A stretch of 64,000 bases of DNA from Candidatus Bathyarchaeia archaeon. GTDB taxonomy: Archaea; Thermoproteota; Bathyarchaeia; Bathyarchaeales; Bathycorpusculaceae. The position numbers and the translations under genes are program-made. Positions 6,710 through 21,102 of the stretch are shown in pieces. Location: positions 1 to 64,000 of the forward strand of contig JAVZLM010000006.1 in assembly GCA_038883775.1 (NCBI GenBank), written 5' to 3'. The notes beneath the pieces are model-generated. The model made no database searches and had not been told where the DNA came from. It was given only the letters and a program-made list of their open reading frames with translations. The first letter of the stretch is position 1; every line of letters starts with the position of its first letter.

Positions 6710-8190
6710 CCTTTAATTTTAATCATTTGTAGCATTCTTGAAGCGAGAATTCTTGCTTCTTTATCAAGAGCCAATACAACAGATAAGTAAATTATTCCGC
6801 CAACAGCTGTTACCGCAAAAGTTAACATTATGGTTTTTGGATGTGGAAGTAAAAATAAGACCAAAGCCATCAAAATTGAAGCAAAAACGTATTTTGCGAT
6901 ATTCCACCATGGAATTTTTATTCTGACCATTCTGTGAACGATAACGTATTGAATAAGAAACATGACGAAACGTGCAGCAAAATTGATAACGCTTACATAA
7001 AATGAAGCCTGCGAAGGATTATTTTGAACGTATACGGTTAGTGCATAAAATGTCATTGGAATGGTTATTGCTGAATGGATATATGGCAAAGAAAATGCGA
7101 GGAAGAGGCGACTTCTTAATAATTCTTTGAAGGAAATTTTCGCTTTTTCATCAACTTTTTCAAATCCCAAAAGCACAGTATTATATAAACTAGATATTGT
7201 TATTAGCAAAGCATCTATTGACAAGATAACTAAAGTAGGTGTGGCTTCTTCATACTTAGGGCTGAGGATTATTAAGTAGGAATCTCTAAGCGCTATTGCC
7301 CCAGCAGTCATGGGCAACGCGAACATTAAAACAACTTTCATTATATTAGTTACATCTTCATGCTTCCCTTCAGCAAGCAGCCTTGGATATAATGCGAAAG
7401 CTAAATAGGAGGAGTAATTAATTATTGCCGCTATTATCCAAGCAGCTCCATAATTTCCTCGTGCTGCATCTCCACCATAGATAAATAACAGTATAAAAAC
7501 GAAGGATGCTATTTGATTGCCAACAGCGCTGTATATATTTACAATGGAACCTTTTAACCATTCCTTCAAATAACTCCACTGAAAATTTTGCTTTAACTCG
7601 CTTGATAACAATTTAAGATAATAAATTGATTGAATGAAAAAAGTCAGTATTAGACTAAGCATGGCTCCAAAAAGAGGATTAGGACGGAAAATCCAGTTTA
7701 TCAATATATAACCTAAAGAAACTTTAGAGGCTTCCCTTAAAAGCACCCCATAGCCTATTACATGCGGTTTCTTGGCTTGAAGACACTGTTCCAAAGCATA
7801 AATTGCATAAGTTTCAATTATTTGTATTGTGGTTATAAAATAAAGGAAAAAGTATTTCTCAACATTAAGCCTGGAAACAATAAAAGGAATCAATAAAACA
7901 TATACTAAAGCAGCAATTAATGAAATGGTCAAGTTTGCAATTATTCCAGTTTTCACTGCACCTTCCTTCCCTCTCGCCGCGAATCTCAACGCCCAAAAAG
8001 GAATCACCCCAGCCATCAAAGTAAAGTAGGGCAATAAATCCTTACTGACATTAGACCATATACCATATTCAGCTTGGCTGGTTACACGAGTTATCATAAG
8101 TTGGAAAAAGAAGCCTGTCGCAACACTAAGCAAATGAGCAGTGAATATTACAAAACCCGTATATTCGAGGCGTATTTCGTTTTTTGTCAA
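6706..8190 (-). CDS. Polysaccharide/oligosaccharide flippase (Wzx/MOP superfamily)
   Basis: About 12-14 TM segments; start placed at TTG after AGGTGA (ORF track extends to 8265). Confidence 0.75.
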   Translation of the reverse strand: MTKNEIRLEYTGFVIFTAHLLSVATGFFFQLMITRVTSQAEYGIWSNVSKDLLPYFTLMAGVIPFWALRFAARGKEGAVKTGIIANLTISLIAALVYVLLIPFIVSRLNVEKYFFLYFITTIQIIETYAIYALEQCLQAKKPHVIGYGVLLREASKVSLGYILINWIFRPNPLFGAMLSLILTFFIQSIYYLKLLSSELKQNFQWSYLKEWLKGSIVNIYSAVGNQIASFVFILLFIYGGDAARGNYGAAWIIAAIINYSSYLAFALYPRLLAEGKHEDVTNIMKVVLMFALPMTAGAIALRDSYLIILSPKYEEATPTLVILSIDALLITISSLYNTVLLGFEKVDEKAKISFKELLRSRLFLAFSLPYIHSAITIPMTFYALTVYVQNNPSQASFYVSVINFAARFVMFLIQYVIVHRMVRIKIPWWNIAKYVFASILMALVLFLLPHPKTIMLTFAVTAVGGIIYLSVVLALDKEARILASRMLQMIKIKG

Positions 8191-8348
8191 GTGTTCACCT
8201 TTGCTTGCTGGTTTATGGATATTATTTTTGGTATTTAATATATTATGTTGGAAAAATAATTTCATTCCAAGCCTGTTCCATCTTTTACTATGAACGTAGC
8301 AACTACATTAATGCTATGCGAAGGTGATAAAGAGTATAAAGTATGGTT

Positions 8349-9296
8349 TTATTCGACGCCTTCTATTGCCGTCTGATATGTTTGGTAAATTGCTTTAGCT
8401 GCTTCTTCTATTCCCTTCTTTTCTTCGTTTGAAAGAGCATCATAGAAGGAAGGCCCTAGAGAGCGCCCAAGTTTTAATGGTGTTCCAACAAAAACGGGTT
8501 CGGGTACTCCTTCAAACTTCATAGGTATCGCCACTGAAACTATTTCCATTGTGTTTTTTACTATGGCCCTAACAATGTCTCTGAAGGAGGCAGCTGGACC
8601 ATACTCTGTGCCTCCAATATTGTCGATCACAAATTTTGATATAGTCTTCATATAAGACTCGATTTCGTCTTTGCGCAAAATTTTGTTTTTTGACTTAATA
8701 TACTCGTCCAGAGGAAGACCACCAACTTTTGTTGTGGACCACAAGATAACTGCGGCTTCTCCATGCTCTCCTCCAACCCAGCCTTGAACTTTGGATACTG
8801 GCACTTCTAATGTTGCCGCTAGTTTAGATCGAAACCTTAAGGATTCAAGGTTTGTTCCGGTGCTTATTACAAAATCAGCCTTTGAGTATTTTTTGCAAAC
8901 CATCGCCATCGCATCCACAGGATTTGTTATAACAATGTATTTTGCGCCCGGGTTTTGTGGAGACGTGACTTCAGCGATATACTTGATTATTTTTGCGTTT
9001 TGAACCGCCAAATCTCGCCTACTCATCTTAACTCCTGGTATTCTGGGTTCTCCTGCTGAAATTAGAATTATGTCCGCCCCTACAACCTCCTCATCTTTTT
9101 CGCAAGCATTTATTTCCACATCTAACCCTAAACTTGCTGTGACATGTTTTAGTTCTTCAGCGAAGGCCGCAGCAAGCCCTGGTTTGGTATCGCACACTGT
9201 TATTATGTCTGCAAGTTCCGCGCACATAATGGTATATGCCGTTGGGCGTCCTACACGACCTGTTCCAATTTGGGCTATGTGCAACCTCATTTTCAC
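8349..9296 (-). CDS. mdh: Malate/lactate dehydrogenase family protein
   Basis: GTGRVG Rossmann motif, AGEPR..G..RRDL (Arg at the specificity position), TNPVD, GEHG. Confidence 0.75.
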   Translation of the reverse strand: MKMRLHIAQIGTGRVGRPTAYTIMCAELADIITVCDTKPGLAAAFAEELKHVTASLGLDVEINACEKDEEVVGADIILISAGEPRIPGVKMSRRDLAVQNAKIIKYIAEVTSPQNPGAKYIVITNPVDAMAMVCKKYSKADFVISTGTNLESLRFRSKLAATLEVPVSKVQGWVGGEHGEAAVILWSTTKVGGLPLDEYIKSKNKILRKDEIESYMKTISKFVIDNIGGTEYGPAASFRDIVRAIVKNTMEIVSVAIPMKFEGVPEPVFVGTPLKLGRSLGPSFYDALSNEEKKGIEEAAKAIYQTYQTAIEGVE

Positions 9297-9551
9297 CTTT
9301 TGTCTATTTCATCGAGGGCTTATATGACCTTTTCCAATTAAGTAATCTTGGGTTTCTTTCCAGTCCCTTATTTTTCTGCGTATCTTAGAAAGTTTATGCT
9401 TTTAATGCTGAAAATTGTGCGCTTATTTTAATTAGTCAATCATACGTAGAGCATGAAAACTCTCAATAATTTAACTATAAAATTATAAAATAGGAATGTT
9501 TAGTTTATTCAATGAATAATGCTTTGAAGACGTTTGGAGTGATAATTGTAG

Positions 9552-10511
9552 TTGCCAACTAAAAACGTGTTGATTCTAGCTGGTGGCGGAGGACACACAG
9601 GATATGGATATGCCTTAGCACAGAGACTTTATGGTAAGGTCAAGCTGCATTTTCTTGTTCCAAAAGGGGATACTCTCAGTCATGAAAGGCTGAGCAAGTT
9701 TGGCGCCGTCGATTTTCTTTTGAAGCCGAGAGAGGCAAAAACGCCCTTGAGTGAGTTTATTCCGAAACTTGCAAAGGCTTCCATTGGATCTTTTAGGCAA
9801 GTTTCCAGCGACTTAGATGTTGTTGTAAGCACTGGTAGTAACTTTTGTATACCGCCGAGTTTTTTTGCTTGGCTGAAAGGTATACCTTTAGTTAATATTG
9901 AAAGTTCTGTGCGTTTTACTAGAGCCTCAAAAACTGCGCTTTTATTACAGCCTTTCTCGGCTATAACTGCTTTACAGTGGGAGGAACAGAAAAAACTGTT
10001 AAAAAAGGGGGTGGTTGTTGGACCATTATTTCCTAAACCCGAAGTTGAGCCCTGGAATGGCGGTTATGTGCTTGTGACAGGAGGCACTTTGGGACATAAG
10101 CAACTTTTTGATGCAATTTCAGAGAGCGATTTAGAAAATGTGGTTTTGCAGGTTGGGCTTGTTAATCCAGAGCCTTATAAGAAAAGGCATCCTGAATGGA
10201 AGATTATACGTTTTTCCAACAGATTTTATGAACTTGTGGCTGGCGCTGAGCTTGTTATTACACATTTCGGTTCTACAGCGCTTGAGGCTGTGGTTTATAA
10301 GAAGCCGATGGTGATGGTTCTAAATCCGGAATGGAAAAGAACTGTGGGCAAGTCGGATGCTGAAATTTTTGCGGAAAAGGTTAACGCAATTTTCGTCTGG
10401 GATGTAAAATTAGATAATTTGTTGAGGGCTATTGAAGAAGCAAAGGCGAGAAGTCTTCCGACGTTTGCAGATGGCGCTGAGAAACTCGCTGAGGCAATTT
10501 TGAGGTTTTAA
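9552..10511 (+). CDS. MurG/Alg14-Alg13-like GT-B glycosyltransferase (Agl24-like)
   Basis: AGGGGHTG, VVSTGS, VNIES, LVTGGTLG, VITHFG. Confidence 0.78.
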   Translation: MPTKNVLILAGGGGHTGYGYALAQRLYGKVKLHFLVPKGDTLSHERLSKFGAVDFLLKPREAKTPLSEFIPKLAKASIGSFRQVSSDLDVVVSTGSNFCIPPSFFAWLKGIPLVNIESSVRFTRASKTALLLQPFSAITALQWEEQKKLLKKGVVVGPLFPKPEVEPWNGGYVLVTGGTLGHKQLFDAISESDLENVVLQVGLVNPEPYKKRHPEWKIIRFSNRFYELVAGAELVITHFGSTALEAVVYKKPMVMVLNPEWKRTVGKSDAEIFAEKVNAIFVWDVKLDNLLRAIEEAKARSLPTFADGAEKLAEAILRF

Positions 10512-10528
10512 GAGATGGAGGTTTTTTA

Positions 10529-11575
10529 TTGAATGTTGTTTATGTGGCTTTGGATCCTCTAAAGTATCCTCGGATAAGAAAAATTGGCTACAGTATTAAA
10601 AAGTGTAGGAATGTAGAATTTAGTGTAATGATTCCTCGATTTAGGTTTGTTTATCGTGGGAACAGGCTTGGACGTTTGTTGTTTGCTTTTTTAAATTATT
10701 TTGCTGTGATTTCACAAATCTTTTTTGTCCGGGCTGATTTATTTTGGGTTGCTAATTGTCCTGATGTTTTGGTGTTCCCTCTGATTCTGAGGCGAAAACG
10801 TTACATTTTGGAGTATCGTTCCCCATGGGCTATAGAGGTGGAACAGGAGTTTGGAAGTGGACCTTGGGTTCGTTTTGCATCCATTTTTGAAATTTTGGCT
10901 TTAAAACATGCTTGGATTATTACTTTAACCACGAGCAGGCTTTTAGAACGCGTTAAGCGTTATGGAAAACCGATTTTTGTTATTCCTAATTATCCGCTGG
11001 AAAGTTTCGGGAAAAACATAATTCCGAGGGAAGAACTTAGGAGACGTTATGGATACAGCATGGATGATAAAGTTGTTTTGTTTGTAGGAAAGTTAACACA
11101 TGTGGAAGGCGCGGATTTACTGCCAAAAATTGCGGAAAAAGTGTTTAAGGAAGACGCATCAGTGATATTTTGGATTGTGGGAGACGGACCTTTTTATGAA
11201 ACGTTAAAGGCTTTTGAAGAGAAATATCCTAAACGGGTTAAATTGTTTGGTTGGCAGCCTCATGTGAATATCCCGAGTTTTATTGAGGCGTCGGATGTTT
11301 GCATTGCGCCTAGGCATAAGTCTCCTTTTTCGACTTTTTATAACGAGGAAGGTGTTAGCAAGTTTTCTGAGTATATGTTTTTTGAGAAGCCGATTGTTGC
11401 TTGCGGGGTTGCCGGATCCTCTGAATATTTGTTGGTTGATGAAGATGAAATGGCTGATGAGATTCTAAGGGCTTTACGTGGAGAGGTTTCAAAATCAAAT
11501 CGTAAGACGTGGGAGGAATTTTCAGAAAAGAAAATCGTTGAATTGTTTAGTAGGATTAGCTCTGAGAAAATTTGA
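10529..11575 (+). CDS. Glycosyltransferase family 4
   Basis: VLFVGKL, IVGDGP, SKFSEYM...KPIVA. Confidence 0.85.
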   Translation: MNVVYVALDPLKYPRIRKIGYSIKKCRNVEFSVMIPRFRFVYRGNRLGRLLFAFLNYFAVISQIFFVRADLFWVANCPDVLVFPLILRRKRYILEYRSPWAIEVEQEFGSGPWVRFASIFEILALKHAWIITLTTSRLLERVKRYGKPIFVIPNYPLESFGKNIIPREELRRRYGYSMDDKVVLFVGKLTHVEGADLLPKIAEKVFKEDASVIFWIVGDGPFYETLKAFEEKYPKRVKLFGWQPHVNIPSFIEASDVCIAPRHKSPFSTFYNEEGVSKFSEYMFFEKPIVACGVAGSSEYLLVDEDEMADEILRALRGEVSKSNRKTWEEFSEKKIVELFSRISSEKI

Positions 11576-12662
11576 TTGCTTCTATTATTTTTTGTGAGGC
11601 TTTTCCGTTTCCGAAGGGGTTTGGCAGTTTTTTAAGCTTCTCTGTGAGTTCTTTCTCTTTCCTTAGTATTTCGGCTGCTGTTTTTGTTATTTTTTGTGTG
11701 TTAGCTCCTGTCAGATGGTTGGCTCCTAGTTTTACTGTTTCTGGCCATTCTGTTGTTTCGCGTAGTGTTATGCATGGTGTTTTTAGCCAGAAAGCTTCTT
11801 TCTGCATTCCGCCTGAGTCTGTTAGGATTAGCGTTGCGTTTTTTGTCAGTTTTATTGTTTCATGGTAGCCTACTGGTTTGATGAGCCTAATGTGTTTTTG
11901 TTTTTCCAGTTTTTTGAGCAGCCTTGTTTTGCGGAGTTGTTTTTGGGTTCTTGGGTGGGCTGGGAAAATTATGGTTAGTTGGTTTAGCCTTATTATGGCT
12001 TCTGTTATGTTTTTTAGGTTTTCTGGGTTGTCTACGTTTTCTGGTCTGTGAGTGGTTAATAGCGCGTAGGTTTTTGGTTCTAGGCCTAATTGTTCTAGGA
12101 TTGGGTTTTTTTCTGCTTTTGGCAGTTGCTGGATTAGCACATCATACATGGTGTCACCAGTTTGGCTGATTTTGTTTTTGGCGATTCCTTCTTTTAGGAG
12201 GTTGCTTGTGCAGTTTTCTGTGGGTGTGAATAGAAGCGTTGAGCAGTGGTCTGTTAGGCGTCTGTTTATTTCCTCCGGCATGCGTATATCGTAGCTTCTG
12301 GCGCCTGCTTCTATGTGGGCTACTGGGATGTGCAGTTTCGCTGCGGTTAAGGCTCCGGCTAATGTGGAGTTTGTGTCGCCTGGAACAATAACCAAATCTG
12401 GCTTTTGCTTTTGCAAAATTCTTTCTAGGCGGAGCATTATTTTCGCTGTTTGCTGGGCGTGGGTTCCACTTCCAACATTCAAGTTTACTATAGGGTCTGG
12501 AAGGTTTAGTTCTTCGAAGAAGATTTTTGTCATTTCATAATCGTAATGCTGACCAGTGTGAATCACGCTTAAGCTGGTTTGTTCGTCTTTGCTTGCTAAA
12601 TGAATAAAGGGTGCAGATTTGATGATTTGGGGGCGGGCGCCTAAAACGAGTGTGATGTTCAA
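11556..12662 (-). CDS. wecB: UDP-N-acetylglucosamine 2-epimerase (non-hydrolysing)
   Basis: GARPQIIK, HTGQHYD, GDTNSTLAG, HIEAG, PEEINR, TDSGGMQKEA. Confidence 0.95.
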   Translation of the reverse strand: MNITLVLGARPQIIKSAPFIHLASKDEQTSLSVIHTGQHYDYEMTKIFFEELNLPDPIVNLNVGSGTHAQQTAKIMLRLERILQKQKPDLVIVPGDTNSTLAGALTAAKLHIPVAHIEAGARSYDIRMPEEINRRLTDHCSTLLFTPTENCTSNLLKEGIAKNKISQTGDTMYDVLIQQLPKAEKNPILEQLGLEPKTYALLTTHRPENVDNPENLKNITEAIIRLNQLTIIFPAHPRTQKQLRKTRLLKKLEKQKHIRLIKPVGYHETIKLTKNATLILTDSGGMQKEAFWLKTPCITLRETTEWPETVKLGANHLTGANTQKITKTAAEILRKEKELTEKLKKLPNPFGNGKASQKIIEAIKFSQS

Positions 12663-12749
12663 ATGTGTTTCACCGGCATTTAATTGGATGCTTGTCTTAA
12701 ATAACAGTTATTTATCGAACATGCCTTTTACTTTGAGCTGGTAAAGGCT

Positions 12750-13769
12750 ATGTGTCCCAGTGGGAGGGCGAAGATTAGAATTTTGTTTGTTTATTATCAG
12801 TTGTCTAGTTTTGTTCGCTGCGATTTAGAAATTCTTAAGAGACATTTTGACGTTAAAGAATTGAGGATACCAACCTTTAGAAATCCTTTAAATATACTTA
12901 AACTGCTTTTATGGATTGCGCGCGTTGACTTAGTTTACACATGGTTTGCGGGCACAAACGCCTTTTTTGCGGTGTCATTTTCCAAACTTTTAGGGAAAAA
13001 ATCGCTGGTAATCGTAGGGGGCTATGATGCGGCTTATGTTCCAGAAATTAACTATGGCATCTTCACTAACCGCTGGCGTAAAGTATTGGCTAAATTTGTT
13101 TACAGGCATGTTAACATCGTTTTGGTTGTTGATAAGTCTTTAAAGGAGGATATTTTGAGAAACACACAATTAAAAATTGCAGATAAAATCAAGGTTGTAC
13201 CGACCAGTTACGATGCCAATAAATGGAAACTTGGCATTTGCGGTAAAGAAAATTTAGTTGTCACCGTTGGCGCTATTAATTGGTCAAATGTAAAAAGGAA
13301 GGGGTTTGAAACATTTGTAAGAGCTGCTAAATACCTTCCCGATATAAAATTTGTTTTAATCGGAAAACATTCAGATGCCTCTATATCTTATTTGAAGTCG
13401 AAGGCACCCTCCAACGTCGAGTTTCCGGGTTTTGTGTCCGAAAAAACTCTCTTAAGTTTTTATCAAAAGGCTAAGGTTTATTGCCAATTATCTAGATATG
13501 AAGGTCTTCCGAACGCTCTGTGCGAAGCAATGCTGTGCGAATGTGTACCCGTTGGGACGAAATATTGTGGGATACCTAATGCCATAGGGGACACAGGCTA
13601 TTATGTCTCTTATGGCGATGCAAAGGCTACTGCAGAAGCAATAAGGGAGGCGTTAAATTGCGTTCATGAAAAAGGGAAAGCAGCAAGAGTAAGAATCGAA
13701 AAATTATTTTCTTTACATAAGCGAGAAAGTGAATTAGTAAGACATATTCATAATTTTATAAAATTGTAA
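12750..13769 (+). CDS. Glycosyltransferase family 4
   Basis: KRKG and SRYEGLPNALCEAMLC (EX7E) motifs. Confidence 0.88.
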   Translation: MCPSGRAKIRILFVYYQLSSFVRCDLEILKRHFDVKELRIPTFRNPLNILKLLLWIARVDLVYTWFAGTNAFFAVSFSKLLGKKSLVIVGGYDAAYVPEINYGIFTNRWRKVLAKFVYRHVNIVLVVDKSLKEDILRNTQLKIADKIKVVPTSYDANKWKLGICGKENLVVTVGAINWSNVKRKGFETFVRAAKYLPDIKFVLIGKHSDASISYLKSKAPSNVEFPGFVSEKTLLSFYQKAKVYCQLSRYEGLPNALCEAMLCECVPVGTKYCGIPNAIGDTGYYVSYGDAKATAEAIREALNCVHEKGKAARVRIEKLFSLHKRESELVRHIHNFIKL

Positions 13770-14056
13770 AATTGTTATGATTAGGAAACGTTCTAATTTC
13801 AAGTCTTTGGTCGAGATGCTATCAACCAGCATTGCTGGTAGGCAAATAAATTTCCAAGCATTCGACTATAATTCCGTTATCTATTTGTTGTTTTGAAACC
13901 AATAACCCATAAGAGATAACATAGCTTGTTTGATTATATATTTGTCTTTAATCGTCACTTTCTCTCTTTAGCATCTTTTCTCGTAAAGTTTAAATTTCAA
14001 TCAACCATCGGGTCTCATAAAGTAGTATATTAAAAGCAAAACGACAATTCTGCTCG

Positions 14057-15889
14057 TTATCTTCCAAAAAAGTTTTGAAGGAGCAGCTCTAAGGTCATTA
14101 AAAAGGCAATTTTTTCTCCGTTATTTCCTCGCCTTTTAAAATGCTCGTTTACAATTTTGGTAACGTAATTCTTGTTCAAGTAGCCGAACTTATATATTAA
14201 AGCGTTTTCATTCACCAAAGTTTCTTTGAGTAATTTCATCCATTTAGAATGCCGGCGCAAGATCTCATTAAATTCAAAATAGGAATGCTTATACCTGAAA
14301 GTGCCTCTTGAAAGCCTCTGTACTGCTCCAAGAACCAATGTTGATGGACGCCACAATTGTGATGGCATAATTGGAGGCACCAGTGTTCTTTGATAAGGCA
14401 CCTTGGCTAGCTCAAAATTTAGAGCAAACAAAAACTTTCTGTATATGCGATAATTAAACCGCAGTTCAGGAGGGATACGGCATATAACCTCAATAACCTC
14501 ATTATCTATCGTTGGAAGCATTTCTTCAACAAATTCTCTCAGAGGAATAGAGCCCATTAAAGTATAACGCCGCTGCCGCGTGGTTATATTAAAGTAGTCT
14601 GCTCTATTTGGGAAACTGTCTCCCTTGGTTTCATGGGCTAATTTGGCAAATTCTTTTCGAACCTGAACTATGTATTCATGAAATTTCTCGTTTAAAAGCT
14701 GTTTTAATTCATAAGGCTGGAATAGTGTATACTTTTTCTCTAAAGCCTGCAGAAGCTCGTTAAAACTTTTAGCTTTAAAAAATTCTCTGGATAGAAAACT
14801 CCCACCTAGCAATACATCAAATATGAAACCCTGCAAACAATATTTAATTTCTTTTTCCCTCATCTTCTCAGCCACATACGGAATATAGCTAACGCCCACC
14901 GTATGTTGTCCATCTGTCAAAGACACAACATCATCAGAATAAGCAACTATTTTATCGGGGTCGTAATTGATTATAAAATGATTTGCGCCTAATCTCTTAG
15001 TAACTTTTTTGGCAACGGTTATATCATCGCAGCCCATAATGCCAAAAGTTACAGCCGTAACCTTGCAGTTTTCTTTAATAGCACTAAGCACACATCTGGA
15101 GTCTAAACCACCACTAAGCCATACAGAAACACCATTTATGCCTTTAACTCTAATGTTCACAGCTTTTTTAAAAGCCTTAACAAGAGTCTTTACTAGTTCG
15201 TCCTCATTCACTGGCTGGGCAGAATAAATGAGGTCCCAGTACTTCTCCCAAGTGTAACCTTTTTCTGTGAATGTCAGCACGGATGCTGAAGGCATAAGAT
15301 TTATTCCTTCAAACCAAGTTTCGTCACCTAAAATACCCACCCTTCCATAATACAAAAACTTGACAAGCGTCTTAAGATTAAGTTTCCTCGGAAAAGGATA
15401 TTCTAAAATAGCCCTACAATGAGATGAAAAAATTAGGTCGCCATCACTAAAAGCATAATAAATAGGCCTCGTACCAAAACGATCTGTCACTAAAAGCACA
15501 CTTGGAACTTTGATATCAGAAATAACTAGGCAAAAGGAACCATTCAAATCACAAAAGATACTGTTACCCCACTCTTTATACGCATACAATATAAATTCTG
15601 CGCTACTGCCCTCATCTTTGAACCTATAACCCTTACTCTTAAGAAGTCCTAACTTATGCCTAAACCCAAAAATCTTGCCATAAATGATAACATCAACTGA
15701 CCTATCCTCATCAACTGCATGTTCACCGAAACCAAGATCAGGATACATAACCAAGGCAATATCGAGATAATCATGCGAAAAAAAGTCAATCCTTTGATCA
15801 CCATTCGTTCTTATAGCATTAGCCATTCGCTGAATCCGAGTTTTCGAAAGAGAATTCTTAAATTTAGTATAACCAACTATTCCAACCAT
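14057..15889 (-). CDS. Asparagine-synthase-like amidotransferase (glycan amidation)
   Basis: DRFGTRPIYY, LSGGLDSR PP-loop; N-terminus MVGIVG lacks the usual Cys2. Confidence 0.82.
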   Translation of the reverse strand: MVGIVGYTKFKNSLSKTRIQRMANAIRTNGDQRIDFFSHDYLDIALVMYPDLGFGEHAVDEDRSVDVIIYGKIFGFRHKLGLLKSKGYRFKDEGSSAEFILYAYKEWGNSIFCDLNGSFCLVISDIKVPSVLLVTDRFGTRPIYYAFSDGDLIFSSHCRAILEYPFPRKLNLKTLVKFLYYGRVGILGDETWFEGINLMPSASVLTFTEKGYTWEKYWDLIYSAQPVNEDELVKTLVKAFKKAVNIRVKGINGVSVWLSGGLDSRCVLSAIKENCKVTAVTFGIMGCDDITVAKKVTKRLGANHFIINYDPDKIVAYSDDVVSLTDGQHTVGVSYIPYVAEKMREKEIKYCLQGFIFDVLLGGSFLSREFFKAKSFNELLQALEKKYTLFQPYELKQLLNEKFHEYIVQVRKEFAKLAHETKGDSFPNRADYFNITTRQRRYTLMGSIPLREFVEEMLPTIDNEVIEVICRIPPELRFNYRIYRKFLFALNFELAKVPYQRTLVPPIMPSQLWRPSTLVLGAVQRLSRGTFRYKHSYFEFNEILRRHSKWMKLLKETLVNENALIYKFGYLNKNYVTKIVNEHFKRRGNNGEKIAFLMTLELLLQNFFGR

Positions 15890-15947
15890 TTTAATGCGCC
15901 TAAAGAATTTTTATTACATGATTTTTCGCTCATACTAAACATTGCAA

Positions 15948-16811
15948 CTATATATGTCCAGTAGTCATGTTTAACTCCCTTTGCAATGATTTCACTCGCT
16001 TCATAACTGTCTCAGCTTCTTTGTAGATGTGCTTATCTTTAATTTCTTCTTTTCTCTTCTCGTTGGATTCTAAGATAAGCCTCAAAAAATCAGAGTCATA
16101 ACTCTTCAAAAGCAACTCAACATTGGGGATTATACAATGTCCGCCAATAACGCCTGGAAACATCACTGGTCTATCAAGCCTAACCCTATGCGTATCCTCA
16201 ATAAAATCCACAACTCCATCAAAATCCGCCCCCAAACTCCTACTAATCCTATGCATTTCCTGAAAACAAACAATCATCCAAGCCCTATAAGTAGTCTCAA
16301 AAAGCTTAGCCAACTCCGTCTCCAAACAACCCCTCAAAACCTTAGTTTTCAAACCAGCCTTTTCAAAATGCTTTCGAGCAGCTTCCGCCGCCTCCCTATT
16401 CACGCCACCCACATATTTTGTCCAACGCTTCAACTCCCATTTCATATGCTCCAAACTCTTATGCACCCCACGAACAGGCGAATGCGCCACAAGGCAACGG
16501 CCGCCACAACGCTCAAACAAAGCCATAGTCGTTCCCGGCGAAACAGTACTATCAACAATCACAAGTTTAGGCTCAAAACGTTTAACATAACCCACAACAT
16601 TCTCAACAAACTCTTCCTTACCAACGCACGGAATACAAACATGCATAACATCAACTTCACTAGGCAAAACACCCGTTTGCCCAGCCCTCCGCATCTTATC
16701 AGCATCCAAATCAAAACCATAAACCTCAAACCTTCCACTCTCCCTCAACAACTCAAACAACGCACGCCCAACCTCACCCAAACCCACAACCAAAACTTTT
16801 TCCTTAACCAA
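15948..16811 (-). CDS. Short UDP-glucose/GDP-mannose dehydrogenase family protein
   Basis: GLGEVG, DSTVSPGT, HSPVRG, ETELAKL, GGHCI; start placed at TTG 16811 (ORF track extends to 16853). Confidence 0.8.
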   Translation of the reverse strand: MVKEKVLVVGLGEVGRALFELLRESGRFEVYGFDLDADKMRRAGQTGVLPSEVDVMHVCIPCVGKEEFVENVVGYVKRFEPKLVIVDSTVSPGTTMALFERCGGRCLVAHSPVRGVHKSLEHMKWELKRWTKYVGGVNREAAEAARKHFEKAGLKTKVLRGCLETELAKLFETTYRAWMIVCFQEMHRISRSLGADFDGVVDFIEDTHRVRLDRPVMFPGVIGGHCIIPNVELLLKSYDSDFLRLILESNEKRKEEIKDKHIYKEAETVMKRVKSLQRELNMTTGHI

Positions 16812-16899
16812 CCCTAAACCAACCCCCAAATAGAACAAAAAATAAACCACCAAACTATTTAAACTTCACACCCATAACTACAAAACCAGAGGAAAAACC

Positions 16900-17406
16900 A
16901 TGCCAAACCCGCAAACAGGTAAAGGCGTAATCATAGGCAAAAACGTCCAATTCGGCAAAAACGTCGTAATATGGAATTATGTAGTTATAGGCGACAACAC
17001 AAAAATAGGCGATGAAACCCGCATAGGAAGCTTCTGCGACATCGGCAAAAACGTTATCATAGGAAAAAACTGCATAATACAAGCGCACGTGACAATATCA
17101 AACGAATGCCAACTTGGCCACAACGTCTTCATAGGACCAAACAGCAGCTTACTAAACGACAAATTCCCCCACAGCAAATGCCTAACCCCATCAATAATAA
17201 AAGACAACGTAGTCATAGGCGGATGCGTAACAATACTCCCAAACGTCACAGTACACGAAAACTCAGTAATAGCCGCAGGAAGCGTAGTAACAAAAGACGT
17301 ACCACCCGAAACCGTAGTAAAAGGAATACCAGCCAAACCCATGATGACAAGACAAGAATACGAAACAAAAAGAAAAACATTCATTGAAACAAGAAAAACA
17401 ACCTAA
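16900..17406 (+). CDS. Hexapeptide-repeat (left-handed beta-helix) sugar N/O-acetyltransferase, WbpD-like
   Basis: IGxN hexapeptide repeats, VFIGPN...NDKFP, AGSVVTKDVP...GIPA. Confidence 0.9.
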   Translation: MPNPQTGKGVIIGKNVQFGKNVVIWNYVVIGDNTKIGDETRIGSFCDIGKNVIIGKNCIIQAHVTISNECQLGHNVFIGPNSSLLNDKFPHSKCLTPSIIKDNVVIGGCVTILPNVTVHENSVIAAGSVVTKDVPPETVVKGIPAKPMMTRQEYETKRKTFIETRKTT

Positions 17407-17410
17407 CATA

Positions 17411-18430
17411 TTAAACTCTAGGCTTGCCACTCCACCGCTCCGGAAACTTCAAAACCCACTCTATCTCCTCAGCCAACCCATCAGCAAAACTTGTACGAGG
17501 CATCCACCCCAAAACTTCTCTGGCCCTACGACAATCCAAAACAAAATTTTTTAGCTCCCCCTGAAGCCTTATACGTTCAGGTTGAAAACTCGAAGCCGTA
17601 CCCTCCTGCGGATTATCATAAATAACATCAAGCTTTGCGCCAGCCATTTCCACGAGCATAATTGCCAATTCTTTAATAGACACACCTTTTCCACTCCCCA
17701 AATTAAACACTTTACCAGAAGACTCAGGCTTTTCTACGGCCAAAACATGCGCTCTAACAATATCCTTTACATAAACAAAATCTCTAGTCTGCAAACCATC
17801 ACCAAACACCACAGGAGGCTTATTCTCAAGAAAAATCCTCTTAATAAACATCGTCAAAACACGTCCAAACCACTCTCTAGGCCCATACACAATACCATAC
17901 CTAAAAACCGTAGCATCCAAACCAAAAAGCTTGTGATACTGCATCACATAACGCTCAGCACAAAGCTTACTAACACCATAAGGCCAATGAGGCTCCAACG
18001 GATGCTCCTCATCTATAGGAAGATATCTAGCCTCTCCATAAACAGCCCCAGAAGAAGCAAACAAAACCTTTTCCACCTTATTTTTTAACGCCACATTCAA
18101 AACATTTAATGTTCCAAAAATGTTTATCCTAGCATCTTTTTCCGTATCCCTTATACCAGTATAAACTTCCAACTCCGCTGCAAGATGATCTATAACGTTT
18201 ATTCTTTCTTTTTGCACAACATTATTAAGCATAGCAACATCTAAAATGGAACCCTCAACAATTTTTAATCGCTCATCCTTTATTTCTTTCAGATTTTCAG
18301 CAGTCCCTGTAGAGAAATCATCATAAACGACAACCTTCTCCGCTTCATTCATTAAATATTCTTCAGTTAAATGTGAACCAATAAATCCCGCCCCACCAGT
18401 AATTAAAACATTTTTTCCTTGAACAACCAT
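17411..18430 (-). CDS. NAD-dependent nucleotide-sugar epimerase/dehydratase
   Basis: TGGAGFIGSH, SSGAVYG, YGVSK, QTRDFVYVKD. Confidence 0.92.
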   Translation of the reverse strand: MVVQGKNVLITGGAGFIGSHLTEEYLMNEAEKVVVYDDFSTGTAENLKEIKDERLKIVEGSILDVAMLNNVVQKERINVIDHLAAELEVYTGIRDTEKDARINIFGTLNVLNVALKNKVEKVLFASSGAVYGEARYLPIDEEHPLEPHWPYGVSKLCAERYVMQYHKLFGLDATVFRYGIVYGPREWFGRVLTMFIKRIFLENKPPVVFGDGLQTRDFVYVKDIVRAHVLAVEKPESSGKVFNLGSGKGVSIKELAIMLVEMAGAKLDVIYDNPQEGTASSFQPERIRLQGELKNFVLDCRRAREVLGWMPRTSFADGLAEEIEWVLKFPERWSGKPRV

Positions 18431-18444
18431 TTTATCTCACCAAG

Positions 18445-19431
18445 CTATTGTCCAATTTCTTCATTGATTATTCGCTCTATTACGTCAACTGGATTTTCAA
18501 GTTTTTCAACAAGATTTTGAACATCCCACTTCTTTCCTAAAAACCTCTTGGCATATTCTAAAACTTTATCAAACGCAACAGTAAATATGGGAAAACCTCT
18601 TTTTGCCAGGTAATCGTTAACATAAACTTTTCCAAAAACGGGCACAACTATTGTAGGCACACCCTGCAACGCTGCTTCCCTAGCTATAGTCCCCCCAGCG
18701 CTAATAACTAGGTCTGCTTGAGAGACAAGACTTGCAGAATCAATGAATTCTCTTGGAACAGTTAATTCCTTCGCTTGGAATTTTTTGTAGCGTGGCAAAA
18801 ATAAAACATTGCCAAGAGAAGCTAATTTTTTCGCTAAAGTTTTTGTTAAATTTTCTTTTCCTTGGGCGTATGCAGCCTTTTCTTCAATTTCCCTTATAAC
18901 GATTAAAGGCCTCTTACAATCATACTTAATTTTTGGTTTGAAATTTTTTATCCAAGCAACTTCATCTACTCCATCAAACCTATAAATTTTCTTTATGCCA
19001 TAACCTTCCACACAATGTTTTGGCAAAGCCTTAGAAACAACTAGAAAATCAATTAATGGCATTGTAAGCCTATTTATGGCTTCAGCGTGAACCGTATCAT
19101 GAGTTGAAATGTTAGGTATTCCCAATCCAAAGGCAACTCTGCACAACTCAACTGACCGATGCGAAATAGCCACGTCTGGAACGTCTTCCTCAAACATCTT
19201 GCAGAAAAACAATTGGCGTCTCAAACTTTCTCTGAGTCTTAAAAGCAACGAAGTTGGAGCATATCTCCCAACAACTATAAATTCTTCCTTTAGAAAATTT
19301 GCCAGGGCCAATGTATCTGGATGTTTTCTCGTAGTCAAAATTACTTTATGCCCCTTATTTCTAAGCCTTTGTGCTATAGCCACACCATATCGAATCTGTT
19401 TTCCCGTGCACGCGTCATACCAGATTTTCAT
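18445..19431 (-). CDS. DUF354 family protein (GT-B fold)
   Basis: MKIWYD...KQ start, GGTIAREAALQGVP. Confidence 0.8.
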   Translation of the reverse strand: MKIWYDACTGKQIRYGVAIAQRLRNKGHKVILTTRKHPDTLALANFLKEEFIVVGRYAPTSLLLRLRESLRRQLFFCKMFEEDVPDVAISHRSVELCRVAFGLGIPNISTHDTVHAEAINRLTMPLIDFLVVSKALPKHCVEGYGIKKIYRFDGVDEVAWIKNFKPKIKYDCKRPLIVIREIEEKAAYAQGKENLTKTLAKKLASLGNVLFLPRYKKFQAKELTVPREFIDSASLVSQADLVISAGGTIAREAALQGVPTIVVPVFGKVYVNDYLAKRGFPIFTVAFDKVLEYAKRFLGKKWDVQNLVEKLENPVDVIERIINEEIGQ

Positions 19432-19922
19432 TCCTTAACCCTCAAAAATTGGCACCCAACAGTTTCTGCTGCCAACATATCTTCAATTGTGTTTCCAATA
19501 AAAAGAACGTTTTGCCTCTGAACCCCCAGTTTTTCTGTGGCAATTTTAAGCTGTTCGATTCGGTCAAGGGAATTCTCTCTCGTTATAACAAAATTGAAAG
19601 ATAAACCCAAGCGTTTTAAAGCTATTTGCACTAAAGATTTGCCTTGCATAGTTACAAGGGCTTTCCGTTTTTCTGAAAATTTATTGTAATAGGTGACACC
19701 TTCAGGATTTATTTTCATGTTTACCGATGCATCAATTTCGAGTTTATTCCACACGTCAAAAATTTTCATTTTAGTTTCTTTATCTAATTGAGCAACCACT
19801 TTTGTTAATGGACGCAGATTAGACATTTTTGTTATTTCGCTCATCTCTTGAAAGAGTTTTTCGTAATTAATTGGCAAATGAATTAATGTACCGTCAAGAT
19901 CGAATATTACAGCCTCTATCAA
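19428..19922 (-). CDS. HAD-superfamily hydrolase
   Basis: IFDLDGTL motif I; FIGN...D motif IV variant; 4-bp overlaps with both neighbours. Confidence 0.8.
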   Translation of the reverse strand: MIEAVIFDLDGTLIHLPINYEKLFQEMSEITKMSNLRPLTKVVAQLDKETKMKIFDVWNKLEIDASVNMKINPEGVTYYNKFSEKRKALVTMQGKSLVQIALKRLGLSFNFVITRENSLDRIEQLKIATEKLGVQRQNVLFIGNTIEDMLAAETVGCQFLRVKE

Positions 19923-21016
19923 CTGTACATTTCTCCAATAATTTTTCCATTTTTAACCAGTTTCGCTGGTGCGTCGATGTGACGGATCCAATAGATGTTT
20001 TCTGGTAAGATATTATATTTGGGCATAGTTGGCATTTCTTCTCCAAATGCAAGTTTCACGTAGAGATAAGGAATGTTTGCGTAATAATCTCTTCGTATTA
20101 TTTTACTTGCATAAGAGAAGAAGAAAGATGTTGTAAACATTCTTCCAGCATTAATTTCTGTTACACAAGGTTCACCTTCCTTATTTTCCTTTAAATCTAC
20201 ACATGCAATTCCACTGAAATTTGAGTCTATAGCCAATACGGCCTTGGTTCCTATTTCGTTTACAGCTTCGTCATGAATAGTTCTTTGAACTGCAGGGGTG
20301 CCAGTAACGCCTGATGGCGCAAGATTTGGGTAAATATATTCTATTCTCTCTCTAGCCATAGAAGTTATAAGTGCTCCATTTTTCCACAGACTGTGAAAAC
20401 CTATATTCCTTCCTGGCAAGTATTCTTGGGCGATAAACTGCCAATCCATTTCGCGAGACTTCCAGTATTTTATCCAAGATAATGCTGTTTCCTGGTTTTT
20501 AGCAAGTGTACTTCCTCTTCCACCAGCGCCATGCCTTGCTCTTATCCATATAGGAGCCCCTAACTCTTTGAAGGCTTTGTTAACATCATTTTCATTTCGT
20601 AATTCAATAGATTTTGCCACTGAAACATTATTCTTTTCCCATTTTTCCGCGGACTTTAACTTGTCTTGGCAAATGCGTATAGTTTCCTTTGCGGGCAGAA
20701 AAGTCTTAGCCTTCAATTTTTCACGGTTTTCGGATATTGCGGTTACCTCAACATCTGGTTGGGCATGAATAAACTCTATTTTTTCCTTTTCCACTATATT
20801 ATTTAACTCTTCGATATATTTTGGGTTTGATGCTTTAGGAACTAAATATCTCTTATCTACGGGAGCCAAATGAATGAAAAATTGATTAGCTTCTGTTCCA
20901 ACGGTAAAAATTTTTTCAGGCGCTATTTTAAGCGACATGATAAAATTTATGCCAGCTGGTCCTCCAGCTCCAGTAACCAGAATCTTTTTCATAGCATTTC
21001 CTCGCGCTTGTTCCAC
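19919..21016 (-). CDS. ATP-grasp domain protein
   Basis: LVTGAGG, CQDK, HGAGGRG, QEYLPG, EINAGR. Confidence 0.82.
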   Translation of the reverse strand: MEQARGNAMKKILVTGAGGPAGINFIMSLKIAPEKIFTVGTEANQFFIHLAPVDKRYLVPKASNPKYIEELNNIVEKEKIEFIHAQPDVEVTAISENREKLKAKTFLPAKETIRICQDKLKSAEKWEKNNVSVAKSIELRNENDVNKAFKELGAPIWIRARHGAGGRGSTLAKNQETALSWIKYWKSREMDWQFIAQEYLPGRNIGFHSLWKNGALITSMARERIEYIYPNLAPSGVTGTPAVQRTIHDEAVNEIGTKAVLAIDSNFSGIACVDLKENKEGEPCVTEINAGRMFTTSFFFSYASKIIRRDYYANIPYLYVKLAFGEEMPTMPKYNILPENIYWIRHIDAPAKLVKNGKIIGEMYS

Positions 21017-21087
21017 TTTGTTAAGTTCCTTAGGGCCAATTTTCTCTCTTCAGTATGAAAAAACAGCTTAATATTTATTCTCAACAA

Positions 21088-21102
21088 CCAAACTTTAATA
21101 AA
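21088..21102 (+). promoter_or_regulatory. BRE/TATA promoter of tRNA-Val
   Basis: CCAAAC-TTTAATAAA about 27 bp upstream of the mature 5' end. Confidence 0.6.

Follow-up and report, generated by a model that had tools for sequence, protein, structure and literature searches.

Strand-fixed amino/keto skew domains in a glycan locus of a bathyarchaeal genome fit a local, strand-asymmetric substitution bias

Asymmetry of base composition between the two strands of DNA is usually taken to reflect the direction of replication or each gene's own transcription. Vertebrate mitochondrial DNA has an A+C-rich strand with very little G at its 4-fold degenerate sites; genes on the other strand mirror this composition, and C>T together with A>G changes affect the exposed strand. 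Transcription-associated asymmetry involves deamination of the non-template strand and includes the asymmetry at the 5' ends of human genes. The chemistry of single-stranded DNA is established: C and A are deaminated, and A is lost by depurination. The heavy/light strand asymmetry of vertebrate mitochondria is treated in a published review (PMC3269012). Here we describe strand asymmetry in a 64,000-nucleotide stretch of a Candidatus Bathyarchaeia archaeon genome (the window, to which unprefixed positions refer), where one domain of a sugar-nucleotide and glycosyltransferase locus is G+T-rich on the + strand and another is A+C-rich, whatever the orientation of the genes. The skew is real and tied to the strand; it peaks at neutral sites, is derived in the lineage studied here and is maintained in two further domains of the genome, and both domains of the window are extreme cases of a feature found across the genome and the order.

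The window corresponds to C6:1-64000 (contig JAVZLM010000006.1) of a draft metagenome-assembled genome (G000) of 1.69 Mb in 28 contigs, 91% complete with 5% contamination, and the stretch was found in sequencing runs from hot-spring metagenomes. Keto skew (KS) was calculated as (G+T-A-C)/n, with signs in + strand terms unless the sense strand is named. Segmentation and base counts delimit domain 1 (10051..13150; A705 C454 G799 T1142), whose + strand is G+T-rich with a KS of +0.25, rising to +0.455 in a core at 11576..12225 that spans the 3' two-thirds of the - strand gene wecB. Domain 2 (16076..18075; A745 C611 G249 T395) has an A+C-rich + strand with a KS of -0.36 and peaks at -0.64 in 16701-16900. 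A preliminary description had placed the two domains at 9.6 to 12.4 kb and 15.2 to 18.2 kb; their existence stands, and those limits are approximate only. Weaker tails occupy 8176-10225 (+0.09) and 14776-16075 (-0.14 to -0.16). Domain 1 fades gradually to the left and drops on the right at ~12.8-13.15 kb, and the middle part of the locus, with a second GT1 gene, an AsnB-like gene and the 3' end of a dehydrogenase gene, has no skew. Both edges of domain 2 are intragenic: the last ~50 codons of the dehydrogenase (below 16076) and the first ~100-120 codons of an epimerase (above ~18075-18130) are without skew. Values this extreme are rare in the genome, where 7/3290 2-kb windows reach a KS of -0.35 or lower (sd 0.072).

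Each domain contains genes in both orientations and keeps a single strand polarity throughout at their 4-fold sites. Pfam assigns the genes of domain 2 to a UDP-glucose/GDP-mannose dehydrogenase family (15948..16853, - strand), a hexapeptide-repeat acetyltransferase (16900..17406, + strand) and a NAD-dependent sugar epimerase/dehydratase (17411..18430, - strand). Their 4-fold KS values on the + strand are -0.68, -0.81 and -0.65; in sense terms, the dehydrogenase (+0.68) and the epimerase (+0.65) rank first and fourth for G+T among 1643 genes, and the acetyltransferase between them (A41 C24 G3 T4) ranks second for A+C. In domain 1, an Alg14/GT28-C-like glycosyltransferase (9552..10511, + strand, 4-fold KS +0.30) and a GT1-family glycosyltransferase (GT1a; 10529..11575, + strand, +0.45) are followed by WecB, a UDP-GlcNAc 2-epimerase (11556..12662, - strand; Pfam E=4.9e-116), at +0.59. 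The sense strand of GT1a is therefore G+T-rich and that of wecB A+C-rich (-0.59 overall; -0.70 in its 3' half and -0.48 in its 5' half). Flanking genes range from -0.23 to +0.30. A non-coding stretch lies within the most skewed part of domain 2: 16812..16899, between the divergent dehydrogenase (its start placed where orthologs begin aligning) and acetyltransferase genes, has A45 C28 G4 T11 (KS -0.66), and the polarity does not change across this promoter region. It contains a TTTAAA box ~40 nt ahead of the acetyltransferase ATG, a candidate promoter element.

These counts uphold the central claim of the preliminary description, namely that the bias tracks the DNA strand and not the coding strand; it persists at 4-fold sites, where it is strongest. 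The count of 3 G in 120 nt is exact (16741-16860 = A52 C47 G3 T18), and the codons that were quoted are present. Past inversions had been offered as one cause; an inverted segment carrying an older skew is not supported, with both gene orientations inside each domain and no inverted repeats at the domain edges. A reach into amino acid composition was also proposed and exists, at modest size: the skew lies mostly at third positions, with first and second positions displaced less, and the F/L/V/G/W/C fraction of the dehydrogenase is 0.40 (0.29-0.37 in six orthologs), while the K/N/T/P/Q/H fraction of the acetyltransferase is 0.38 (0.30 in an unskewed ortholog).

An artifact of assembly, amplification or binning might be suspected in a draft metagenome-assembled genome of this completeness and contamination, and is scarcely credible. 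Contigs (not raw reads) from two other hot-spring studies are identical to the window, or depart from it at one letter, over pieces several hundred bases long within each domain; among these pieces are 9509-10563 (X3), 16722-17010, 17449-18109 and 18109-18684 (X2), and 17416-17600 and 17986-18329 (X4). Because independent contigs agree over parts of both domains, we conclude that the skew did not originate in assembly. Furthermore, the reading frames are intact with strong Pfam matches, and domains of the same type occur in assemblies of other species.

Comparison with orthologs showed that the skew is lineage-specific. A genome of the same genus (G003) is colinear with 16035-21100 at 78% identity, and DNA identity is alike inside and outside domain 2; nearly all differences inside the domain pair T in G003 with C in G000, or G in G003 with A in G000. 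The sense 4-fold skew of the epimerase is +0.65 in G000, -0.05 in G003 (83% amino acid identity) and between -0.22 and +0.08 in four other orthologs. Since the skew is absent from all five, it must have arisen in place. Amino acid identity to the G003 epimerase ranges from 0.78 to 0.95 within the skew and from 0.65 to 0.88 elsewhere, which speaks against the earlier suggestion that variation in this locus may be selected. By parsimony, changes in the skewed part on the G000 lineage comprised 20 A>G, 2 C>T and 3 others, and the sister branch had 22 changes of mixed type. Sense-strand differences at 4-fold sites from G003 to G000 fall at 13 A>G, 11 A>T and 10 C>T sites; the A>G and C>T classes bear out the deamination signature that had been proposed, and the A>T class lies outside it.

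For the other genes, the skew varies among genomes. The acetyltransferase has a 4-fold skew of -0.81 in G000, -0.75 in a genome of another family (G029) and -0.03 on a closer metagenome contig; 16/31 loci in other genome records, a set that includes near-duplicate records, lie at or below -0.4. Same-strand skew extends from ~-1.5 kb to +1.2 kb around the acetyltransferase start in the profile of 15 of the 16 skewed loci (L140, a duplicate, was left out). In G003 the acetyltransferase ortholog (L013:14536-15032, G003:C73) is broken by an in-frame stop at the Q71-equivalent codon and a frameshift near residue 81-83, and its locus is weakly skewed; the same contig carries a second dehydrogenase-family open reading frame (ORF; L013:1052-1771) with a sense skew of +0.74 and an adjoining same-strand methyltransferase gene at +0.40. 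Sense skew of WecB spans -0.59 to +0.69 over 19 loci of the order, a range that argues against the gene's own codon selection as the cause. At the five G+T-sense WecB loci (+0.45 to +0.69), the upstream opposite-strand genes carry the same strand polarity.

The locus is a mosaic, and this raises the alternative that the skewed segments are foreign patches, recombined from a donor plasmid or virus with asymmetry over the whole molecule and long single-stranded stages of replication. The dehydrogenase is nearer to a metagenome contig (76%) and to a genome of another family (73%) than to G003 (63%), the domain edges fall within genes, and in G004 and G008 nothing corresponding to the epimerase and acetyltransferase separates DUF354 from the dehydrogenase. 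In the loci of two relatives (L014, G004:C1; L008, G012:C1), the ATP-grasp, HAD, DUF354 and dehydrogenase genes are co-directional, with neither epimerase nor acetyltransferase between them and no skew, so that the epimerase with its antisense acetyltransferase appears to have been inserted into an operon of greater age. The acetyltransferase is also 78-91% identical in amino acids in many records, including copies (L154, L158, L160) on contigs binned as Aenigmatarchaeota, Jordarchaeia and Methanomethylicaceae, which represent either gene transfer between phyla or binning errors. Nevertheless, we consider foreign patches unlikely. The skewed part of the epimerase is nearest to that of G003, with even identity along its length, and the G003 copy is unskewed; two other domains, described below, are held at equilibrium in several species with no decay, and one heavy mutational event would wreck the proteins. 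A viral origin of the acetyltransferase in particular is rejected, as none of the seven candidate stretches in viral contigs (0/7) encodes a relative. No mobile-element Pfam family matched any of the 13 ORFs scanned at 6.7-21.0 kb. A reverse transcriptase was likewise rejected, with no RVT_1 match in the contigs of this 91% complete genome, as was a diversity-generating retroelement, for which there is no RVT_1, no long repeat pair within 9000-19500 and no adenine specificity of the changes.

Across the genome, coding-strand 4-fold skew of the 1643 genes has a mean of -0.06 (sd 0.20), and its correlation between neighbors is positive on the same strand (r=+0.36) and negative on opposite strands (r=-0.28, n=357, p=1e-7), as strand-fixed domains would give. 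Extreme opposite-strand pairs number seven that are strand-fixed versus zero that share a coding sign; permutation of 380 pairs gives an expectation of 1.0 extreme strand-fixed pairs, and 0/5000 permutations reached seven. Intergenic flanks track the 4-fold skew of the adjacent gene (r=0.25, n=821; r=0.22, n=548). The opposite-strand correlation is -0.33 for convergent pairs (-0.26 without the genes of the window) and -0.22 for divergent pairs (-0.13, p=0.085), a difference that is suggestive only of stronger strand fixation in convergent pairs. At larger scale the skew is near zero: KS over the nine contigs longer than 80 kb lies between -0.03 and +0.015, and the contigs are dotted with 38 segments, some positive and some negative. 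Similar domains cover a thermosome region and a secreted-protein operon, so the feature is not peculiar to the glycan locus.

The most skewed stretch of the genome, C5:1-4700 (L017), comprises four + strand genes at -0.75 to -0.88, with 500-nt KS down to -0.57, encoding a signal-peptidase-like membrane protein, a cysteine-rich secreted protein, a DUF11-like protein and a DUF5305 protein. It ends ~280 codons into a 633-aa gene without a Pfam hit, and the 625-aa gene that follows resembles what we take to be a candidate HerA-type ATPase. A second domain, C1:50000-52800 (L019), is strand-fixed over a thermosome gene (- strand), a ThiS-like gene (+ strand) and the first ~150 codons of a radical-SAM gene (+ strand); its right edge lies in mid-gene and is conserved in G004 and G002. 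A further strong domain, C9:5986-9851, spans five genes called from ORFs in mixed orientation, two of them with a Pfam match. Contig C20 (8622 bases) has a KS of +0.21 overall; its 1024-aa M14 peptidase-like gene lies on the - strand and is A+C-rich in sense terms (-0.57).

The C5 and C1 domains have the same edges in relatives of the genus at ~88-90% identity, and in both the bias is ongoing rather than a relic; they look actively maintained. Between G000 and G004, retention at 4-fold sites in the C5 domain is.84 for A,.77 for C,.47 for G and.36 for T (outside it.68,.68,.69 and.82), and the matrix of changes is symmetric. Parsimony had suggested decay of the C5 skew (20 A>G versus 3 G>A; 23 C>T versus 9 T>C); this candidate was set aside because parsimony under-counts changes at rare bases with fast turnover, and pairwise retention shows equilibrium. 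Upstream of the thermosome gene, only.58 of the A/C sites in the G+T-sense ThiS/radical-SAM stretch stay A/C, versus.81 in controls. Apparent conservation of skew by position beside the malate dehydrogenase gene (G001, G002) was discarded as uninformative, since it reflects a co-oriented A+C-sense Rml operon.

These domains also bear on whether coding-strand codon bias could be responsible, with translational selection for A/C-ending codons acting on the acetyltransferase and WecB and their neighbors being odd in appearance only. The A+C-sense tail of the genome does include the thermosome (-0.69), EF-2 (-0.47), LeuRS, L30e and NusA genes, the 36 tRNAs found have GNN, UNN and CNN anticodons and no ANN, and sites in the C5 domain change to A/C more often and away from A/C less often, with A<->C exchange unchanged. 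As the sole cause, however, codon bias is refuted. The genes next to the acetyltransferase are its mirror image, using G/T-ending codons to an extent matched by few or no others in the genome, the non-coding sequence between divergent genes is itself skewed (-0.66), domain edges lie inside genes, WecB orthologs are G+T-sense in other genomes, and selection for A/C-ending codons cannot explain a ThiS/radical-SAM stretch that is losing A and C so quickly. Overall, we regard this account as quite improbable. For the preliminary description, which named coding-strand codon bias as a possible refutation, the result is divided: codon selection probably adds to the skew wherever the A+C-rich strand is the sense strand, as in the acetyltransferase and WecB, and is unable to account for their neighbors. 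A small gradient in the first genes of operons, from a sense skew of -0.03 (codons 0-50) to about -0.08 to -0.12 (codons 150-350), could equally be a codon ramp.

The arrangement of the two domains in the window suggests another possibility, a recombination hot spot with recurrent double-strand breaks at ~13-16 kb, where 5'-to-3' resection would expose the + strand to the left and the - strand to the right and the middle cassette would be newer. By our reasoning, G+T on the left and A+C on the right is the order that resection predicts, and the middle part is unskewed, with no match to it found in relatives of the genus. Strand-coordinated mutation clusters at resected breaks are, in the yeast work cited here, a described phenomenon (PMC3521656, PMC6786661). 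Even so, this scenario is very improbable: the C5 and thermosome domains have no partner of opposite sign, domains elsewhere are not paired in this order, with, on our reading of the segment list, about as many -/+ as +/- pairs, and the skew of domain 2 does not decay away from its inner edge.

We therefore lean, with somewhat more confidence than doubt, toward a persistent, local, strand-asymmetric substitution bias that fits damage to whichever strand is more often single-stranded. One strand would steadily lose C and A, by C>T, A>G and also A>T changes, and its partner would end at ~90% A+C at freely evolving sites. Purifying selection would preserve the proteins, so that the bias would be mainly synonymous and non-coding and mild in amino acids. 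A preference for A/C-ending codons would add to it where the sense strand is the A+C-rich one, which may be why the oppositely oriented genes, acetyltransferase and WecB, are the most skewed. Heat-driven damage, by deamination and possibly depurination, could be the cause. The local trigger may be some strand-specific process on the DNA whose ends are fixed without regard to gene borders, as favored by the sharp and conserved edges; the most likely form would be an R-loop or transcription unit spanning genes in either orientation.

Sequence features of the window give partial guidance on such a unit. Oligo-T tracts act as terminators in archaea. The core of domain 1 (650 nt at 11576-12225) contains 14 runs of at least five T on the + strand, antisense to wecB, and no run of at least five A starts on that strand between 11137 and 12995; acting as terminators, these T runs would stop read-through into wecB. 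A T6 tract on the + strand at 18081 coincides with the right edge of domain 2, and further T runs lie within the domain. No repeats and no callable promoter-like boxes were found at the domain edges, and no known RNA reached Rfam gathering scores within 9000-19500. Classical deamination of the non-template strand agrees with the ThiS/radical-SAM stretch. The reverse relation, in which the sense strand becomes A+C-rich, would account for both edges of the thermosome and of the acetyltransferase domains, each as one unit, and we know of no precedent for it.

Several observations weigh against single-strand damage as we propose it. Classical non-template deamination would require transcription to continue past numerous oligo-T tracts in each domain of the window; simple transcription models fail for single genes, with no flip of polarity at the dehydrogenase/acetyltransferase promoter region; and the highly expressed thermosome and EF-2 genes are A+C-sense, opposite to the classical expectation. 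Antisense embedding of a gene in an operon was rejected as a general trigger (n=137, mean -0.081 versus n=487, mean -0.072; p=0.86). In the C5 domain, where all genes have one orientation, rates out of A/C are lowered and rates into A/C raised, as expected from fixation bias, that is, selection. The A-to-T component at 11 epimerase sites is not deamination, and 4-fold divergence from G003 is just slightly raised inside the domain (47/81 sites versus 136/304 outside; Fisher p=0.045). Finally, the genome-wide statistics are based on ORF calls (n=1643) that outside the window come from a crude greedy caller, with some of them checked against Pfam.

We speculate further that thermophilic Bathyarchaeia could harbor self-sustaining "single-strand exposure domains," fixed units of 2-5 kb in which one strand is chronically exposed and damaged by heat, a proposal that we hold tentatively and consider doubtful. 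The units would perhaps be long sense or antisense transcripts or R-loops that end regardless of gene borders. Skew could in turn act on the unit that causes it, for instance if oligo-T terminators were lost from the A+C-rich strand or RNA-DNA hybrids became more stable, and such feedback would yield sharp and conserved edges. In these domains the relation to transcription might even run opposite to that in bacteria and eukaryotes, in that damage would strike the template strand.

If chronic single-strandedness is indeed responsible, the skew would let a DNA transaction be read from sequence alone in organisms beyond the reach of cultivation, and, if exposure domains exist, sequence alone would map long-lived single-stranded DNA in uncultured archaea. 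Such domains also have practical consequences, as they bias estimates of expression drawn from codon usage, can pass for foreign DNA where gene transfer is tested by composition, and yield long spurious ORFs on both strands that may become gene-caller errors. Antisense ORFs at 16137-16817 (+ strand, 226 aa) and 17582-18088 (+ strand, 168 aa) encode low-complexity products rich in N/T/H/K/P/Q and are most likely by-products of a T- and G-poor strand with few stop codons. As for the remaining genes of the locus, Pfam identifies the unskewed middle part as a second GT1 glycosyltransferase (GT1b; 12750..13769, + strand) and the AsnB-like gene (14057..15889, - strand), and DUF354, HAD and ATP-grasp genes follow on the - strand beyond 18430.

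Several known systems share part of this pattern. Translational codon bias is similar in that A/C-ending codons dominate the thermosome, EF-2 and ribosomal genes here, but it follows the coding strand and stops at gene ends, and the domains do neither. Clusters at resected breaks or from break-induced replication, as described in the sources cited here (PMC3521656, PMC6786661), also extend over a few kilobases, affect one strand and switch across the break, although those are single events with a handful of changes; here, 4-fold composition is at equilibrium and the proteins are preserved, which points to gradual change. The GC/AT skew associated with replication in bacteria and some archaea is likewise strand-fixed, independent of orientation and visible at synonymous (4-fold) sites. 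In contrast to that skew, which is replichore-wide and flips at origins and termini, the domains are a few kilobases long, have several-fold larger amplitude and occur in large number with both signs. Transcription-associated asymmetry resembles them in its kilobase scale, its sharp starts and the same two transitions, and the ThiS/radical-SAM stretch behaves as it predicts. There, however, polarity is set by the gene, with a G+T-rich sense strand, whereas here it is unbroken across a divergent promoter region and the genes of highest expression are A+C-sense. In the literature on strand asymmetry and clustered mutations, to the extent that we consulted it, we found nothing on kilobase-scale amino/keto skew domains in archaeal chromosomes.

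There is also a close likeness with vertebrate mitochondria, which have an A+C-rich strand that is very poor in G at 4-fold sites and genes of mirror-image composition on the opposite strand. The excess of C>T and A>G on one strand at neutral sites, typical of mitochondrial deamination, is found here as well, together with A>T. Mitochondrial asymmetry, however, covers a whole replicon and is driven by replication, with a gradient set by the time spent single-stranded, while in this genome it is confined to chromosomal domains of 2-5 kb with sharp edges, contig-wide skew is near zero, and the polarity for the same gene differs between genomes. The asymmetry described here is local on the kilobase scale and blind to gene orientation, of mitochondrion-like strength, with intragenic edges that are common to relatives and with either polarity for the same gene.

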